Source: a phage. From it: a DNA stretch of 64,000 nt. Position numbers and translations under genes: made by a program. The stretch lies in the sequence record PZ386969.1, one strand, 5' to 3'. Below are positions 3,470 to 64,000 of this stretch, one piece after another. Each line of letters opens with the position of its first letter. Position 1 is the stretch's first letter. The notes beneath the pieces are model-generated. The model did no database searches, was not told the origin of the DNA, and saw nothing but the letters and a program-made list of their open reading frames with translations.

Positions 3470-4084
3470 TTAAGGTAATAGAAGTCCATCATCCCGCTCC
3501 GTTGGGGCGGGTTTAATCTCCTTCCGCATCTGTTCCTTCAGCACCCTGACACGTTCGGCATGTCGGCGATCTTGCATCTCCATATCCCGTTTCTTTTTCG
3601 ACTTCAGCTCAAACTGTTTACGAACATCCGGATCTTCACCTGGAACAAGATGCTCTTCGGTCCAGATAATGAACTTCCAGTTCTTCTTGGCACACAGTTC
3701 GCGGGTGGCCTCCCACTTGGCAGAATTGACCAACCAGGTTCGCATCGCATTGTTGAATGTCGACTCCTTCATGTTCGGAGTCTTCTTCGGCTGCTTGATC
3801 TGGTCTTTGGGCTTGATCTCAATGAGGGTGACCTGTAGTTCCTCTTGCCCTTCACGGCGCGTCCAGACCTTGAGGTCCATGAAGTAACGATGGGTGCGCC
3901 CGTCGACTGGGGAAATGTAAGGGATTACGGTCTCCTCACTAGACCACTTCACTATCGCGGAGTTCATATCACAGAACTTGAAAGCCACCAACTCCAGCGA
4001 AGAGCGGAAGATGATGTTATTCACATTCCCCTGATACTTCTTGGGATTAACCGGGGTGTACTTCCCCTGAAGATAGTTGCTCAT
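3470..4084 (-). CDS. hypothetical protein, possible PD-(D/E)XK-like nuclease fold
   Basis: ATG with AGGA RBS; segment PVDGRTHRYFMDLKV...LIEIKPK resembles a D...E-x-K nuclease core; basic coiled-coil C-terminus; lone minus-strand gene between plus-strand genes. Confidence 0.35.
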   Translation of the reverse strand: MSNYLQGKYTPVNPKKYQGNVNNIIFRSSLELVAFKFCDMNSAIVKWSSEETVIPYISPVDGRTHRYFMDLKVWTRREGQEELQVTLIEIKPKDQIKQPKKTPNMKESTFNNAMRTWLVNSAKWEATRELCAKKNWKFIIWTEEHLVPGEDPDVRKQFELKSKKKRDMEMQDRRHAERVRVLKEQMRKEIKPAPTERDDGLLLP

Positions 4085-4134
4085 AATCTAGTCCTAAATA
4101 GCCATAACACTCTATCTATTTAAGGGCTGAGACC

Positions 4135-5103
4135 ATGGCCGACTTCAAGAAGACAATCGATAAGATCAAGGTTCTGAACACGAAGGGATTGTCCCAGGCT
4201 CAGAAGCAATTGTCTTATCCCCTAGACGTTACTGGGGGTAAGACCTTGGGACACTATGTCCTATTCAACATCAACCGCATCTCCGGTTCATCTTATGGCA
4301 ACACGGCTGCTCAGACTATCGAGAACCCAATACAGAACCCTCTGGGGAATACTCCTGTGGTCTATGGGTCCAAGTCTGGTTCCATCACCAAATATGCATG
4401 GGCGCGTCACGTTCGTTCGAACGAATCTATTGTTCTGTGTATGCCGGAGTCCATTACAACCAACTATGGTGTTGGCTGGAACGGTAGCGAGCTGGGGCTG
4501 GCTGGTATGGGGGCACAGTTCCTTTCCCGCGCCGCCCAAGACATGACTCAGTTTAAACTGGGTGATGCGCTCAACGTCGGGAAGGAGATGGGGCGATTCG
4601 CTGCCACCAAGGCTATCCAATCTGCGTCGGAGGCTATTCCATTCCTGCCGAGCATTAACGCTCATGACACCCTTGAGTTGTTCACAGGCACCATGACCAA
4701 CCCATATGTGGAGATGATCTTCCAGGGTGTTCGCAACCGTGAGATTCCATTTACATTCAAATTCACGCCGCGATCTCAGAAGGAAGCCAAGATGGTCCGT
4801 GAGATCATCCGCATGTTCAAGATGCATATGTACCCAGAGTACAAGTACAACAAGAATTCCAGCGCGTTTTACTTGCATCCTTCAACATTCGACATTACGT
4901 TCATGGTCAATGGGGAGCGTAACCAGTGGCTGCACCGCATATCCACTTGTGTACTTTCCAACATGTTCGTCAACGAGACGCCGGACAGTTCATATGCGGT
5001 TCACAAAGATGATGGTATCGTGTCCACGCAGGTTGACATGACCTTCATTGAACTGGAGCCTCTACATAAAGGGCGCTTTGAAACCGAAGGCGATAGCTTC
5101 TAA
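4135..5103 (+). CDS. virion structural protein (baseplate/tail-tube associated, tentative)
   Basis: First gene of a four-gene plus-strand module ending in a tape-measure-like protein; size near T4 gp48/gp54; no enzymatic motifs. Confidence 0.45.
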   Translation: MADFKKTIDKIKVLNTKGLSQAQKQLSYPLDVTGGKTLGHYVLFNINRISGSSYGNTAAQTIENPIQNPLGNTPVVYGSKSGSITKYAWARHVRSNESIVLCMPESITTNYGVGWNGSELGLAGMGAQFLSRAAQDMTQFKLGDALNVGKEMGRFAATKAIQSASEAIPFLPSINAHDTLELFTGTMTNPYVEMIFQGVRNREIPFTFKFTPRSQKEAKMVREIIRMFKMHMYPEYKYNKNSSAFYLHPSTFDITFMVNGERNQWLHRISTCVLSNMFVNETPDSSYAVHKDDGIVSTQVDMTFIELEPLHKGRFETEGDSF

Positions 5104-5114
5104 GAGAGGATGCC

Positions 5115-5669
5115 ATGAAATATTTTGAGAAGTTTCCTCTTGTTTGGCATCAATTACAAGATGTCCAAGAGAACGATCAGGTGCTGTTACAGAACTTAAC
5201 GCGCCGTGTAATGATCTTACAGAAAATTAAGGACATCGAAGGGCTTCTCCTGCCGTATACGATCCAAGATGGGGAAACCCCAAGGTCTTTCGCAGAACGC
5301 GTTTACGGATCCTTCGAGTTGTTTTGGATACCTTGTCTGATAAACGGCATCATGGACATCAATAAGGACTGGCCGAAACCGGAACGCCGTATTGTTGAAG
5401 AACTGACTGCAGATTACGGCATCGATGGTATGTGGGATACAGCCTATTATGTCGACCAGTTCAACAATGTGACCGACGCCCGTGCTATCAAATTTGCATA
5501 TAACCTAGACCTAGATGAGCCGTCCATAATTGCTAACTATGGTCTGACGGCAGTTTCATACCATGATGATGCAATCAGTAAGAATGAAGCCAAACGGAAC
5601 ATCCAAGTACTCGACCCAGATTATGTGTCTTCGTTTGTCAATCAGCTGGAGCAGGAGTTGGCGAAATGA
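5115..5669 (+). CDS. virion structural protein (tentative)
   Basis: Translationally coupled within the structural module; 184 aa. Confidence 0.4.
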   Translation: MKYFEKFPLVWHQLQDVQENDQVLLQNLTRRVMILQKIKDIEGLLLPYTIQDGETPRSFAERVYGSFELFWIPCLINGIMDINKDWPKPERRIVEELTADYGIDGMWDTAYYVDQFNNVTDARAIKFAYNLDLDEPSIIANYGLTAVSYHDDAISKNEAKRNIQVLDPDYVSSFVNQLEQELAK

Positions 5670-59076: not shown

Positions 59077-59403
59077 TTAACCCGAAACTTTATTTTGAAA
59101 TCCGACAAAGTCCTGGGCAATCCCCCGGCAATACATCAGGTCTTTCTTCGTTTGTGGACTGTTATCAGCCGCAGTCAGCATCATGGGAAGATCCAGCGCA
59201 TTCTCTATCTGATCAACACTGAACAGATCAAGGCGCTTCAGCTCTCCCTCGAAGTCAGACAGTAGGATAGATGTGTCTTTGTCATCTGGGTGGAACTGCT
59301 GATACGTCTCCATCCACGCCACACATGTGTTCAGTTTGGACGGTGGCGCGGCGTTTACACACCCGGCTATCAGTACCAACAAGAGCAGGATTTTACATTT
59401 CAT
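59077..59403 (-). CDS. lipoprotein (outer-membrane-type signal, lipobox LIAGC)
   Basis: ORF track start is GTG; ATG start; MKCKILLLLVLIAGCVNA signal with lipobox Cys; one-base overlap with the upstream stop. Confidence 0.5.
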   Translation of the reverse strand: MKCKILLLLVLIAGCVNAAPPSKLNTCVAWMETYQQFHPDDKDTSILLSDFEGELKRLDLFSVDQIENALDLPMMLTAADNSPQTKKDLMYCRGIAQDFVGFQNKVSG

Positions 59404-60089
59404 CACTCGTTCTCCTTCATCATATTGTCGCAGTCAACACGAGTCTGCTGGAGTTCGCGCGACATGCGAGGATCATCAAGGTTCACGCTCAGATTCGTGG
59501 CCAGGTCTTTCAGACCGTTCTGAACCCTGTCTTCAAAGTAATAATCGTTCTCCACCAACCATGCCCTGAGGCCGAGGGCGCGGGTGCGCCATTCCTTCTT
59601 CAGGACGCGATCAGAGGTCTGCGTGGCGCTGTATTCGAATACTTTGACGCACTGGTTGCCATCGTTGATGAGGTTCAGGTGACGGCGGCCTATCTGCACA
59701 CCCTTCTGTAATGCCGGAGAAGGGAGCGAACGGCACTGTCTTACGGTCATTCGGCCTTGGGTGCCCATACGCCCAGTCATGATCAAATCGCCAGCCTCCA
59801 TGCCTCCACGGTTAAATTCGTCGTCATTGAGGTAGCCCTTGAGGTTATAGGCTCCCTGTTTGTAACGGTTGAACTCAATTCCGGCATTGACGACAGCAGT
59901 GGAGACGTTGCCTGTGTTCCAGAGTTCAGCGAAGTTCTCTATGGAACCAGACTTGTCGATGGCAACCGCCTGGGAGAACCCAGCACAATAGGAAAGGTCG
60001 GACCACAGTTTATCACCTGTGGAGTTCAGCTTGGCAGCGGCGGGTAATGCCAGACCAGCCAGCACAACCCCGAGGATTAAACGTTTCAT
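59403..60089 (-). CDS. secreted/periplasmic protein (signal peptide)
   Basis: ORF 59403..60254; start moved to ATG (MKRLILGVVLAGLALPAAA) with GGAGAA RBS; Sec-type signal peptide. Confidence 0.45.
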   Translation of the reverse strand: MKRLILGVVLAGLALPAAAKLNSTGDKLWSDLSYCAGFSQAVAIDKSGSIENFAELWNTGNVSTAVVNAGIEFNRYKQGAYNLKGYLNDDEFNRGGMEAGDLIMTGRMGTQGRMTVRQCRSLPSPALQKGVQIGRRHLNLINDGNQCVKVFEYSATQTSDRVLKKEWRTRALGLRAWLVENDYYFEDRVQNGLKDLATNLSVNLDDPRMSRELQQTRVDCDNMMKENE

Positions 60090-60168: not shown

Positions 60169-60618
60169 TCAGAAACGGGTATCGCTGACCGTTCTGTATC
60201 GCACACCCTGAAACTGTTTAGCGAGTTTAACAAATTCCATCGCTGGCAAATCAACTTTGTAGACCTTCATGCGCTGTTTGCCGTCCATGTTCAACGCAGC
60301 GACAAATCGGTGAGAACCGTCAACAACGTAATTGTCAGAAGACACCCAAACTCGACCCATAGGTTTCTTATTTCTGATCTGCTTCATAATCTTCCAGACC
60401 TTCATTTTATTGATTTCGTTCTGGGTAAGACGAAGCATTTTGATGGGCACTTGCACAGCATCTATGGACACGCCGTTGTCTTCAAGATATTTGTGAAAAT
60501 CTTCTTGTTTGTCGGCATCGATTTGCGGCATAGAAGAACGCGAAAGCCCGAGGTTCCCAACAGGGATCCTCAGGCCGTTAATGATGTTCAACCAGTCAAT
60601 AAAGGATGTAAGGAACAT
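60169..60618 (-). CDS. ParB/sulfiredoxin-fold nuclease-like domain protein
   Basis: Segment YVVDGSHRFVAA resembles the ParB-like nuclease DGxHR core; 149 aa. Confidence 0.4.
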   Translation of the reverse strand: MFLTSFIDWLNIINGLRIPVGNLGLSRSSMPQIDADKQEDFHKYLEDNGVSIDAVQVPIKMLRLTQNEINKMKVWKIMKQIRNKKPMGRVWVSSDNYVVDGSHRFVAALNMDGKQRMKVYKVDLPAMEFVKLAKQFQGVRYRTVSDTRF

Positions 60619-60842: not shown

Positions 60843-61098
60843 TCAGGATACGAGCAGTGTCGAAACCTTCCCCGCCCGTGTTCAACAGCTTGGTCAGATC
60901 ATCAAGAGTATAGACAGGACCAAGATCAGCCTGGCGAAGAACGAACTCGAGAAGCCCGTAGAGCGCCGATTGGAATCGGGAGTTGTCGATGTCGTTCTTG
61001 ACTTCCATCAGGCGGACAACATTGGCAGACTGGACATAACTCAGCTGAGTCTTACCTTTCACCATGACTTTCACGGAACGGCGTTGTTCAGGCGTCAT
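60811..61098 (-). CDS. hypothetical protein
   Basis: 95-aa ORF overlapping neighbours at both ends. Confidence 0.35.
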   Translation of the reverse strand: MTPEQRRSVKVMVKGKTQLSYVQSANVVRLMEVKNDIDNSRFQSALYGLLEFVLRQADLGPVYTLDDLTKLLNTGGEGFDTARILIDGRPEEDEV

Positions 61099-61473
61099 AA
61101 TGTTCCACCCCCGACAGAGATCAAGAACTCTTCTTGCATGGTCTTGACCGGGTGGTGGTTGCGGGTTTCGAACATGAAGCCCCAGCCACCGTCGGCGACG
61201 TTGCCAAAGGTCTTGACACCAAAGGACTTCGTCCCGTTGGAGCAGGAATAGATGTCCAGGACGTATGGGCTACCCTGATTGTCGATCCCACGATTCACGT
61301 CGTCTGATACGCAGCGCTCAATCATCTTCCCGTTCTTATACAGAACGAGGTCTTGACCATACGCCTTGAAAGCATAAACACCGTTGGTAGACACCCCAGT
61401 GATGACAGGAGGGGCGGAAACAGCAGCAAAGGAAGCTCCCAGCAGGGCAACAGCGAGGATTAACTTTTTCATG
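61095..61473 (-). CDS. secreted protein (signal peptide)
   Basis: ORF 61095..61517; start moved to ATG (MKKLILAVALLGASFAAVSA) preceded by AGAGACTATATC. Confidence 0.45.
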
Positions 61474-61531
61474 ATATAGTCTCTTGGTTTCAAATGGGCG
61501 GGGTAATCATACCCCACCCAAAGTTATAGAA

Positions 61532-61771
61532 TTAACTGATGTGCTTCAGAAGAGCGAAGAGGATCGCGGCCTTGGCCTTTACCTTTCCCACGATGCCTGT
61601 CTCGACATCAACTTCTTCAGCAACCCACTCCTTTCCCTTCTTGCTGATGATCACGTCACGGCGCTGGGCATATACCTCTTTGGTCGCATACACGCGGCGG
61701 AATCCTTTGGCGCGGAGCAAGCCCCAATTACGATCAATTTCTACTGAGGTTTCTACCATTTTGTTCTTCAT
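61532..61771 (-). CDS. hypothetical protein
   Basis: 79-aa basic protein; ATG preceded by AGATTATATC; early promoter upstream. Confidence 0.4.
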   Translation of the reverse strand: MKNKMVETSVEIDRNWGLLRAKGFRRVYATKEVYAQRRDVIISKKGKEWVAEEVDVETGIVGKVKAKAAILFALLKHIS

Positions 61772-61822
61772 GATATAATCTTACCTTTCAACCCGGTGAA
61801 CCCATCGTTCGCCAGTTATTGA

Positions 61823-61852
61823 ATAATACGCATTTACCTTATAGAAGTAAAC
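61823..61852 (-). promoter_or_regulatory. early promoter F (-35 GTTTAC, about 18-nt spacer, -10 TATTAT)
   Basis: Minus strand GGGGTTTACTTCTATAAGGTAAATGCGTATTAT directly after the terminator of the ACP-like gene. Confidence 0.4.
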
Positions 61853-61860
61853 CCCTAAAG

Positions 61861-61885
61861 TAAAAATTCCCAACGTTTGTTGGGG
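61861..61885 (-). terminator. intrinsic terminator (after ACP-like gene)
   Basis: Minus strand CCCCAACAAACGTTGGG followed by AATTTTTA. Confidence 0.6.
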
Positions 61886-61892
61886 ACTTCTG

Positions 61893-62216
61893 TTATTTGC
61901 GCAGGGCAACCACGAGTTCAGCGAGTTCACCCATGGTCGGGTCATCGCCTTTACTACCCAGCCAACCGTCGTCGATTTCGACCTGAAACTCTTCTTCTAG
62001 TTCCATTACGATTTCGATGGCATCCAGTTCATCACCGCCGAGGTCTTTCTTGGTACGGAGGCCAGCCAGCTTGTCCAGGGCGTCCTCGTTTTGAGATGCC
62101 ACGTCGTCCAGCAATTTGCGCTTGTCATCGTCACGCCACAGATCCATATTCAGATTGTCAGTGGCGTACTGAGCCAGATGACGCATGACTTCAACATATG
62201 TTGGTTTACTGCTCAT
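61893..62216 (-). CDS. acyl-carrier-protein-like protein with Glu in place of the phosphopantetheine-attachment Ser
   Basis: C-terminal region DLGGDELDAIEIVMELEEEFQVEI matches the ACP core [20 protein letters not shown] except DSL is DEL (GAT GAA CTG GAT in the DNA); 45-aa N-terminal extension. Confidence 0.55.
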   Translation of the reverse strand: MSSKPTYVEVMRHLAQYATDNLNMDLWRDDDKRKLLDDVASQNEDALDKLAGLRTKKDLGGDELDAIEIVMELEEEFQVEIDDGWLGSKGDDPTMGELAELVVALRK

Positions 62217-62226
62217 GTTATTACTC

Positions 62227-62252
62227 CAAAGAAAGGCGGGTTGCCCCGCCCG
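62227..62252 (-). terminator. intrinsic terminator (after 565-aa gene)
   Basis: GC-rich hairpin (GGCGGG/CCCGCC) followed by TTTCTTTGG on the minus strand. Confidence 0.5.
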
Positions 62253-62257
62253 TTGGA

Positions 62258-63955
62258 TTAGATTTTGATTTCTTTCTCTGTCAGTTCGGCAGTGACCTTG
62301 TACTTCACGCCATCCACTTCAACTTCCATGGTGGACTCTTCCAGGTCGAGGTCGGTGAACCAGCCATGGCCAGCAACGATACCATAAACCACTTTAGACA
62401 GCGTCTTGTTAAGGGCACGGACTTCGGTGATGGCCGCCTTGGCAGCAGCGTCGATCCAGTTTTCGATCAGCTGTTTCTGTAAGGCTTCAGGCACGGCAGT
62501 GATCATAGGAGACTTCACGAATGCTTCGTACTCCTTCAGCGCATTGGCGATGAACAAGTCACCAGCATTGAGTTTCTTGTTCTCGGCAATCTTCTTCTGT
62601 ACCGCTGCGATAGACGGTAGAGAAGAAGCGCCAGCGATCTTAACGTTCAGCTCACGGCTCATGTAGAAGTCGGTAGACTCTTTGGTCTCAGTCTTCGGTG
62701 AGAAGCCGTAATCGCGGATGCCGTAGGAGGACAGGAACTCGGCCGCCTCAGCGCCGTACTGTACTGCCAGGCCTTTGGCGTTACCTTTACCAACCAGGGC
62801 GTCTCGATAGAACTTCAGCACCTTCTGCTTGCCTTTCAGGGCTTCCAAACGGACATTATCCGCAAAGAACTGAGCAGCACTGATGTTCTTGACCATGGCA
62901 CGGTTGACCAGCGGTACGCTTTCCAGGTTCAGGATGAACACTTCCGGACCACCGAACACATGAACACCCATCTCGATCAGCTTCTGTACAACTTCGATAT
63001 CAGCCTTGAACGGCAGAGTCTTCACGTTAATGATACCGTCTTTGACGATGGTATAGTTGCGCCACTGGAAAGTATCCAGTTCTTCAGGCAGGCCAAACTT
63101 CTTCTGTGCGAATTCAGGCACAGCCACAGTACCGTGTTGAATTGTACGCACACTGATGTTCGGGCGCTCGGAGTTATAGACCAAATCACTGATTGGCACA
63201 ACACCCAGATCGTTGGTAGGTTCGAACGTCGGGTTCCACTCTTCGTGTTCTGCCAGCTTGAGAGCCAGGGCTTTACGCTCTTCTTTGGACTGAGCATTCG
63301 CGATCTGTTCTGCCAGCTTGTCTTCGGTGTCGTCGGTTTTCTGCACAGTACCGCGCCCGATACTCTTATAGGAGAACATCGGATGCTTGGTAGCAACAGG
63401 CACACCAGCTTCAGCCAGGTACGTCAGCACATCAACGACGGTGGTCGCGTCTTCGGCCGGAACCAGGTCATAGTCAATACCGTCAACACCACGCAGCTGG
63501 TCGTCAACAATCGCCTGTACCAGATCGTTCTTGATGTTGGAGTAGTCCTGCTTGGTGAAGCAGTTGCTGTACTGTTTGATGAAGCGAACGTCACCCGTTT
63601 TCTTCAGCGCAGCCCAAACCAGATCTGCGTCCATAGTGTGTACACCGTAGAACGCCAGCACGTATGCCGCCTGGATATCCGCCAGCGCATCAAGCTGGTC
63701 GATCATGTTAGGATCGACGACCCACAGCTTCGTGACGCTCTCAGGGATGCTCACGTGGCCGATAGGATGATCTTCATCCGGCTGTACCGCCAGCACGGTC
63801 GCCGCGCCGTTTTCAACATAGATGGCGTGGGTGTATAGCAGGGGTACATCAACAACTACTTTCGGTACAGAAGACTTCAGTACGTTTTCCAGCTCGGTCT
63901 GATATTCGGTCTGGCCTTCGGCGAAAACGTGGGTTGCACCAGATCGTTCGGCCAT
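62258..63955 (-). CDS. hypothetical protein (565 aa; 5' end may extend past the ORF-track start)
   Basis: Long ORF ending with an intrinsic terminator; no P-loop or catalytic motif recognised; start lies 45 nt from the window edge. Confidence 0.45.
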   Translation of the reverse strand: MAERSGATHVFAEGQTEYQTELENVLKSSVPKVVVDVPLLYTHAIYVENGAATVLAVQPDEDHPIGHVSIPESVTKLWVVDPNMIDQLDALADIQAAYVLAFYGVHTMDADLVWAALKKTGDVRFIKQYSNCFTKQDYSNIKNDLVQAIVDDQLRGVDGIDYDLVPAEDATTVVDVLTYLAEAGVPVATKHPMFSYKSIGRGTVQKTDDTEDKLAEQIANAQSKEERKALALKLAEHEEWNPTFEPTNDLGVVPISDLVYNSERPNISVRTIQHGTVAVPEFAQKKFGLPEELDTFQWRNYTIVKDGIINVKTLPFKADIEVVQKLIEMGVHVFGGPEVFILNLESVPLVNRAMVKNISAAQFFADNVRLEALKGKQKVLKFYRDALVGKGNAKGLAVQYGAEAAEFLSSYGIRDYGFSPKTETKESTDFYMSRELNVKIAGASSLPSIAAVQKKIAENKKLNAGDLFIANALKEYEAFVKSPMITAVPEALQKQLIENWIDAAAKAAITEVRALNKTLSKVVYGIVAGHGWFTDLDLEESTMEVEVDGVKYKVTAELTEKEIKI

Positions 63956-64000
63956 CTGCGCCAGCAGTTCGCGGTTACAGTGCCAGCCGTATTCGATGAA

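Follow-up and report, generated by a model that had tools for sequence, protein, structure and literature searches.

Near the end of a 64,000-nucleotide stretch of phage DNA (sequence record PZ386969.1, hereafter the window), the minus strand encodes a 107-amino-acid (aa) protein, MSSKPTYVEVMRHLAQYATDNLNMDLWRDDDKRKLLDDVASQNEDALDKLAGLRTKKDLGGDELDAIEIVMELEEEFQVEIDDGWLGSKGDDPTMGELAELVVALRK, that resembles an acyl carrier protein (ACP) but lacks the Ser to which phosphopantetheine is attached. Its source is a phage of the Ackermannviridae. The region is 95.8% identical to that of Escherichia phage vB_EcoM-ZQ1 (Aglimvirinae) and is 90-96% identical in many related Escherichia, Enterobacter, Yersinia, Salmonella and Shigella phages. 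The gene follows that of a vWA-domain protein and is flanked by two hairpins (Table 1).

Table 1. Features of the ACP-like gene and its surroundings in the window
Feature	Position	Strand	Remarks
Coding sequence of the 107-aa Ser-less ACP-like protein	61893..62216	-	stop codon TAA at 61893-61895
GAA codon of Glu63, aligned with Ser36 of E. coli ACP, the phosphopantetheine-attachment site	62028..62030	-	alignments and codon reading
ACP-fold domain, helices I-IV	61896..62135	-	residues about 28-107
Helix II, the ACP "recognition helix"	61986..62030	-	about residues 63-77
Clade-specific N-terminal extension	62136..62216	-	about 27 aa; one extra helix (residues 7-21)
Clade-specific loop G84-T94, GWLGSKGDDPT	61935..61967	-	3 residues longer than in E. 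coli ACP
Ribosome-binding site, GGAG	62224..62227	-	7 nt 5' of the ACP-like ATG
GC-rich hairpin with T-rich tail, between the vWA and ACP-like genes	62234..62251	-	sequence
Gene of the upstream vWA-domain protein (phrog_2426), 3' 1743 nt	62258..64000	-	rest lies beyond the window
Terminator-like hairpin just 3' of the ACP-like stop, end of the transcription unit	61869..61884	-	sequence

A sequence-only reading of this DNA had claimed that the invariant Ser of the ACP motif DSL is replaced by Glu, and we read the same codons: GAT GAA CTG GAT encodes D62-E63-L64-D65. In an ungapped BLASTP alignment with E. coli ACP (27 residues, 57-83; 17/27 identical, E = 5e-9) these four residues fall on D35-S36-L37-D38, and a phmmer search of PDB sequences aligned B. 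subtilis ACP in the identical register, again with Glu63 on the Ser. To see how general the change is, we inspected this position in 31 family members from the protein database, in 20 Ackermann-type genes from viral contigs, in more distant relatives and in two further phages, phiMAM1 and Bue1. All relatives examined carry Glu or Asp, never Ser. Among the 20 Ackermann-type genes, 12 have GAA (Glu) and 8 have GAT (Asp); the large Kuttervirus clade has Asp; and relatives with only 33-50% identity (P0042-P0049 and P0062) have Glu or Asp. The 90-aa ACP-like version of Serratia phage phiMAM1 reads FDELD. Erwinia phage vB_EamM-Bue1 (L126, about 5316-5615, plus strand) has a 99-aa Ser-less ACP-like open reading frame (ORF), with MDELD in ...FAMDELDYIEFIMELEDD..., directly 3' of its vWA gene; this ORF was overlooked both by the genome annotation and by the gene caller. 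A misread Ser codon, the weak point that the sequence-only reading had itself named, is ruled out by the family-wide Glu or Asp and by the distance of GAA from every Ser codon (at least two substitutions). A pseudogene is likewise ruled out, by the family-wide acidic residue and by purifying selection on the gene.

Phosphopantetheinyl transferases of the AcpS and Sfp types require the hydroxyl of a Ser at the N-terminus of helix II. Across the family alignment, no other position of the ACP domain holds a conserved Ser. Only S2, part of the N-terminal extension, is a conserved Ser, and more distant family members have lost it. T94 is invariant and aligns with the usual Thr before helix IV of ordinary ACPs. 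Because the transferases use the Ser hydroxyl, and because the canonical site is acidic throughout a family that conserves no other Ser in the domain, the protein is predicted not to be 4'-phosphopantetheinylated, as had been proposed, and so to be neither a holo-carrier nor loaded with acyl groups.

We assigned the helices by offset from E. coli ACP, setting E63 equal to S36. Helix I then spans residues 30-40, the G-D-E-L-D turn leads into helix II (residues 66-77), and helices III and IV span residues 83-88 and 95-106. Structure prediction, the check that had been suggested for the ACP-like character of the protein, returned a model with the four-helix carrier-protein fold. The N-terminal extension, earlier put at 45 aa, is a single helix of about 27 aa, since helix I already occupies residues 30-40. 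Its invariant residues are Y7, V10, L14, A18, N21 and L22, and those of the loop between helices II and III are W85, G87, D91, D92, P93 and T94. Both the extra helix and the longer loop are absent from the phiMAM1 and Bue1 versions and are thus clade-specific additions.

The Pfam PP-binding model (PF00550) matches at 26 bits against a gathering threshold of 20.8, over profile positions 26-66 only, and the phrog_4154 profile ("acyl carrier protein") matches over the full length (E = 2.4e-57, residues 1-107 on positions 1-108 of 108). The protein falls far under the cut-offs of all NCBIfam ACP models, including the AcpP equivalogs (34.6 against 70.45). Many GenBank records of the family already carry the name "acyl carrier protein". 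In acidity the two proteins are alike, with isoelectric points of 4.26 for the phage protein and 4.05 for ACP. A search of the defense and anti-defense libraries of PADLOC gave no meaningful match, and Rfam detected no RNA element on the flanks of the gene.

The surface by which ACP binds its partners has been retained. The ACP docking residues D35, D38, E41, M44, E47, E48 and D56 correspond to D62, D65, E68, M71, E74, E75 and D83, all of them kept in the 107-aa protein and invariant or nearly so in the family. In ACP, mutagenesis showed that D35, E41 and E47/E48 are needed for recognition and modification by AcpS (bioRxiv 10.1101/2025.01.28.635281), and IscS binding needs D35 and D38 (PMC13343975). 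The protein is in this sense a dead ACP: it keeps the four helices of the fold and the acidic face with which helix II docks, and a carboxylate takes the place of the attachment Ser. Conserved docking residues together with a lost Ser are what one expects of a mimic, in which the host binding surface persists and the activity does not. Pairwise ratios of nonsynonymous to synonymous substitution rates (dN/dS, or omega) against the window gene range from 0.03 to 0.3. Constraint is tightest in the half comprising helices II-IV (omega about 0.05-0.15), and some comparisons give values as high as 0.45-0.5 for the N-terminal half. Given this pattern, the gene is maintained and is not a relic.

We also assessed how widespread Ser-less ACPs are among phages. 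The Ackermann-type protein is kept in about 270 phage genomes (272 records), covering all Ackermannviridae lineages tested. Among the top matches of a profile searched against 1.8 billion representative proteins, at least 33 carry D-[ED]-L-D, a count that is not a frequency because the search profile favors such sequences. In IMG/VR, a pattern scan identified at least 11 viral contigs outside the Ackermann group that encode a Ser-less ACP look-alike. Several of these are otherwise ordinary AcpP-like proteins; for instance, the protein of locus L042 is 58% identical to E. coli ACP and yet reads DELD. A scan open to all three residues (Ser, Glu and Asp) gave Ser in 77 and Glu in 3 of the 80 best viral ACP homologues. 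Ser-less forms are therefore a recurrent minority among viral ACP homologues. The non-Ackermann loci inspected have no vWA gene, and Pfam annotation of their neighboring genes revealed no lipid or polyketide genes. A partner gene shared by these loci was also sought by all-versus-all BLAST of the neighbors and rejected, as only sporadic pairs emerged.

Some of these loci have unusual arrangements. Locus L032 carries tandem ACP-like genes on the plus strand, a Ser-less one (3896-4153, ADELD) and one with an intact DSLD (4161-4469), a dead copy beside a potentially functional one. Elsewhere the Ser-less ACP domain is part of a larger protein, one of 669 aa with Lys/Ala-rich linkers (L039, 2915-4924, plus strand) and another of 248 aa (L044, 3452-4198, plus strand). 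In L041 and L044 the Ser-less domains adjoin weakly related proteins of about 350 aa with faint DnaJ or kinase-like matches. In two unrelated large phages, the Ser-less ACP-like gene overlaps the next gene, which encodes about 200 aa, by 4 nt (L007, 6001-6249/6246-6866; L004, 7079-7375/7372-7968; all plus strand). The two downstream proteins are non-homologous, and both loci sit amid nucleotide-metabolism genes (ThyX; RNR, dUTPase-like, ThyA and DHFR).

Close inspection of the upstream gene in the window showed that the adjacent "565-aa protein" of the sequence-only reading is an ORF (62258-63955, minus strand) without an in-frame stop up to the window edge. It belongs to a protein of about 735 aa whose N-terminal 155 or so residues, with most of the vWA domain and all residues of the metal-ion-dependent adhesion site (MIDAS), lie outside the window. 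In relatives this phrog_2426 protein has 733-746 aa, with the vWA domain (PF00092) at residues 20-184. The MIDAS residues (D24-x-S26-x-S28, T97 and D127) are intact and invariant in three aligned full-length homologues. The other neighbors are small unknowns, spanin-like genes and a ParB-like protein, and a 5-hydroxymethyldeoxyuridine DNA kinase gene lies about 6 kb upstream in relatives. The small protein encoded 5' of the vWA gene is conserved in Ackermann-type phages and is not recognizable in RB43. No lipid, fatty-acid, polyketide, acyltransferase, synthase or phosphopantetheinyl transferase gene was present among the neighbors examined.

Phage Maynard has the identical hairpin between the vWA and ACP-like genes, annotated there as a terminator. 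As the stretch between the two genes contains no promoter-like site, the ACP-like gene is probably transcribed by read-through from upstream. In Maynard, a terminator and a sigma-70-like promoter (TTGGCA...TATAAT) come before the unit, which comprises the genes of a 58-aa protein, the vWA protein and the ACP-like protein. The 26-kb Maynard locus has just one T4-type late motif (TATAAATA), far from this unit. The promoter, a consensus match in Maynard, and the distance of the late motif suggest that the unit is expressed early.

The region also varies among relatives. In some close relatives (ZQ1, LHE287, CAU_YEP3 and SW16-7), about 357 bp of extra sequence separates the ACP-like gene from the next gene (the corresponding gap in the window is 61772-61892). 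Within this extra stretch lies a co-oriented 74-aa ORF (in ZQ1: L125, 606-830, minus strand) that has no annotation and is absent from the window. Just 5' of the unit of small ORF, vWA gene and ACP-like gene, some divergent Ackermann-like contigs carry a phosphoribosyltransferase and NAPRTase pair of the NAD salvage type (L002, 5027-7542; L006, 987-3502). The insertion marks this as an accessory-gene hotspot.

ACP ranks among the most highly connected bacterial proteins; it serves the synthesis of fatty acids, phospholipids, lipid A, lipoate and biotin and also binds SpoT, MukB and IscS. The phage protein probably descends from a cellular ACP, and we tentatively regard it as a candidate non-modifiable decoy of the host's own ACP, a reading that we hold to be possible, if somewhat short of probable. 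The protein would be made early in infection, and we infer that it would dock through helix II on at least one host protein that normally binds ACP, occupying the ACP site of this client without delivering a substrate. Candidate targets would include AcpS, PlsB, LpxA/LpxD, Fab enzymes, SpoT, MukB and IscS, and the consequence would be that host lipid or ACP-dependent regulation is blocked or rewired. The carboxylate of Glu or Asp may imitate the negative charge of the Ser-phosphodiester in holo-ACP, or it may cap helix II.

We favor the decoy because the docking face is kept while the acceptor Ser is swapped for a residue that AcpS cannot use, because the replacement is always a carboxylate, and because the same change recurs in unrelated phages whose sole common denominator is the host's ACP clients. 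There is also a functional precedent in its favor, in that obligate apo-ACP inhibits the growth of E. coli and apo-ACP inhibits PlsB (PMC4736557, citing Keating et al. 1995).

Several observations weigh against this reading. Host-specific mimicry is not apparent: the helix II segment is no nearer to enterobacterial AcpP than to other ACPs, and B. subtilis ACP scores higher. An ACP could be copied without the conserved extra N-terminal helix or the GDDPT loop, and their presence hints at a different or additional partner. The gene stands beside the vWA gene throughout the Ackermannviridae, the promoter evidence for early expression is a consensus match only, and Ser-less forms make up only 3/80 of the best viral ACP homologues. 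Interference with host lipid or lipid A metabolism had been suggested from the sequence; no evidence in our analysis points to lipid A specifically.

A broader generalization is that dead ACPs with a "phosphomimetic" Ser-to-Glu/Asp change form a recurrent class of phage host-takeover proteins, derived from cellular acpP in several lineages, that would jam the ACP hub, for instance by trapping AcpS or by blocking PlsB and Lpx enzymes, SpoT or MukB. The Ackermannviridae version would then be a family-wide core member that has gained a helix and a loop. We consider this wider claim doubtful.

The main rival explanation, also raised by the sequence-only reading, is that the ACP-like protein serves the adjacent vWA protein as a dedicated partner, which we judge to be rather unlikely. 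Acidic ligand residues complete the MIDAS metal site in integrin I-domains and in the MIDAS domain of Rea1, and the carboxylate of E63, or D62/D65, might complete metal coordination in the vWA protein in the same way. In all Ackermann-type genomes inspected, Bue1 among them, the ACP-like gene lies about 40-50 bp 3' of the vWA gene; this adjacency holds also for the metagenomic relatives L002, L003 and L006, whose ACP-like proteins are just 33-50% identical. The two genes appear to form one transcription unit and are about equally frequent in the phage collection (268 vWA records with >= 60% identity, 272 ACP-like records), and the MIDAS motif is invariant in the three aligned homologues. However, the vWA family extends to 502 phage records, and in none of the six non-Ackermann members inspected does an ACP-like gene lie within about 3 kb of the vWA gene (RB43 of the Straboviridae, Pseudomonas pf16, Bacillus PBS1, Pantoea Phynn, Vibrio VmeM-32 and Shewanella Thanatos-1). 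In phiMAM1, three genes separate the vWA and ACP-like genes, and neither the extra helix nor the longer loop is present in the ACP-like protein. The Ser-less look-alikes of other phages have no vWA neighbor at all. Between the same pairs of genomes, moreover, the vWA protein is 71-74% identical, far above the identity of the ACP-like protein.

Another explanation is that the protein has no catalytic role and is a structural or regulatory part of a different complex, phage or host, where it would be a scaffold and not a competitor. Plasmodium mitochondrial ACP is an example of the ACP fold used as a binding module without carrier chemistry. Many structural subunits with an ACP fold in the PDB superpose on our model, among them complex I SDAP/NDUFAB1, mt-SAF32, the Ycf2-FtsHi ACP and the ACP-like subunits of Tetrahymena ATP synthase and cytochrome oxidase, and the conserved clade-specific helix and loop suggest an extra binding surface. 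The mitochondrial subunits that are Ser-less or structural, such as trypanosome mt-SAF32 and the ciliate ACP-like proteins, resemble the phage protein in using the fold for binding and not as a carrier, but they are eukaryotic and bind partners with LYR motifs. In the phage neighborhood we identified no candidate partner, whether of the LYR type or another, and no neighbor is common to the different phages with Ser-less ACPs. We consider a subunit role distinctly unlikely.

That the protein is a genuine carrier, modified at a non-canonical residue or with a different prosthetic group, is highly improbable. The database label and the invariant T94 might be taken to favor it, but T94 is simply the Thr that ordinary ACPs have before helix IV, S2 is lost in distant members, the domain conserves no Ser to replace the canonical one, the neighbors examined encode none of the enzymes that would modify or use a carrier (transferase, synthase or acyltransferase), and the NCBIfam score remains at 34.6 against 70.45. 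Least tenable of all is a functionless, decaying remnant of a captured host acpP, which would account for the loss of a residue essential to ACP function but is effectively refuted by the conservation data: retention in about 270 genomes, dN/dS of 0.03-0.3, an intact frame with a ribosome-binding site, and a strictly acidic residue at the site.

It is useful to compare the candidate decoy with known systems. Bacterial type II ACP (AcpP, PF00550) has Ser36 where the phage protein has Glu or Asp; the latter also has an extra N-terminal helix, a longer loop between helices II and III and no fatty-acid synthesis genes nearby. Obligate apo-ACP mutants (E. coli apo-ACP and S. elongatus ACP S39A) likewise cannot be modified and are the nearest functional precedent for a decoy. 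They are laboratory constructs, however, with Ala or an unmodified Ser, whereas the phage protein is the product of a natural, conserved gene with a carboxylate and additional structural elements. Phage ACPs that contain the Ser, such as that of Pseudomonas jumbo phage HRDY3 (phrog_5934), are related in sequence to the 107-aa protein, but they keep DSLD and are presumably modifiable.

The gene family itself is already known and named in databases, and Ser-less proteins with an ACP fold and toxic apo-ACP are known in other settings. What appears to be undescribed is that the attachment Ser is missing, that an acidic residue is fixed across a phage family and that Ser-to-Glu ACPs recur in other phages. 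We found no description of a Ser-less phage ACP in open-access papers and bioRxiv, a scope that does not prove absence, and the same literature held nothing relevant on anti-defense roles or on expression in Ackermannviridae. If the decoy reading is true, a conserved non-modifiable ACP look-alike would be a new viral way to interfere with the ACP hub, and it would be usable directly as a probe of ACP-client enzymes or as a scaffold for their inhibitors. Its carriers are a whole family of phages considered as therapeutic candidates (the ViI, CBA120 and LIMEstone types). The label "acyl carrier protein / auxiliary metabolic gene", attached to hundreds of GenBank records and to PHROG 4154, would be functionally misleading if the protein carries nothing.

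Several features downstream of the ACP-like gene in the window deserve mention. Right after its terminator, and 5' of a 79-aa gene (61532-61771), lies a sigma-70-like promoter (TTTACT-17-TATTAT, 61823-61851, minus strand), which suggests that the 79-aa gene opens a separate early unit. A 140-aa ORF (61095-61517, minus strand) has a signal-peptide-like N-terminus (MKKLILAVALLGASFAAVSAPP). A 109-aa ORF (59077-59406, minus strand) contains a lipobox-like LIAGC, and its counterpart in relatives, a "conserved hypothetical lipoprotein", adjoins the spanin-like genes. Finally, a 149-aa ORF (60169-60618, minus strand) aligns with the middle of the 740-aa phrog_2859 profile (positions 316-467) and has weak matches to ParB-like nuclease families; this ORF may encode a free-standing ParB/Srx-like domain.
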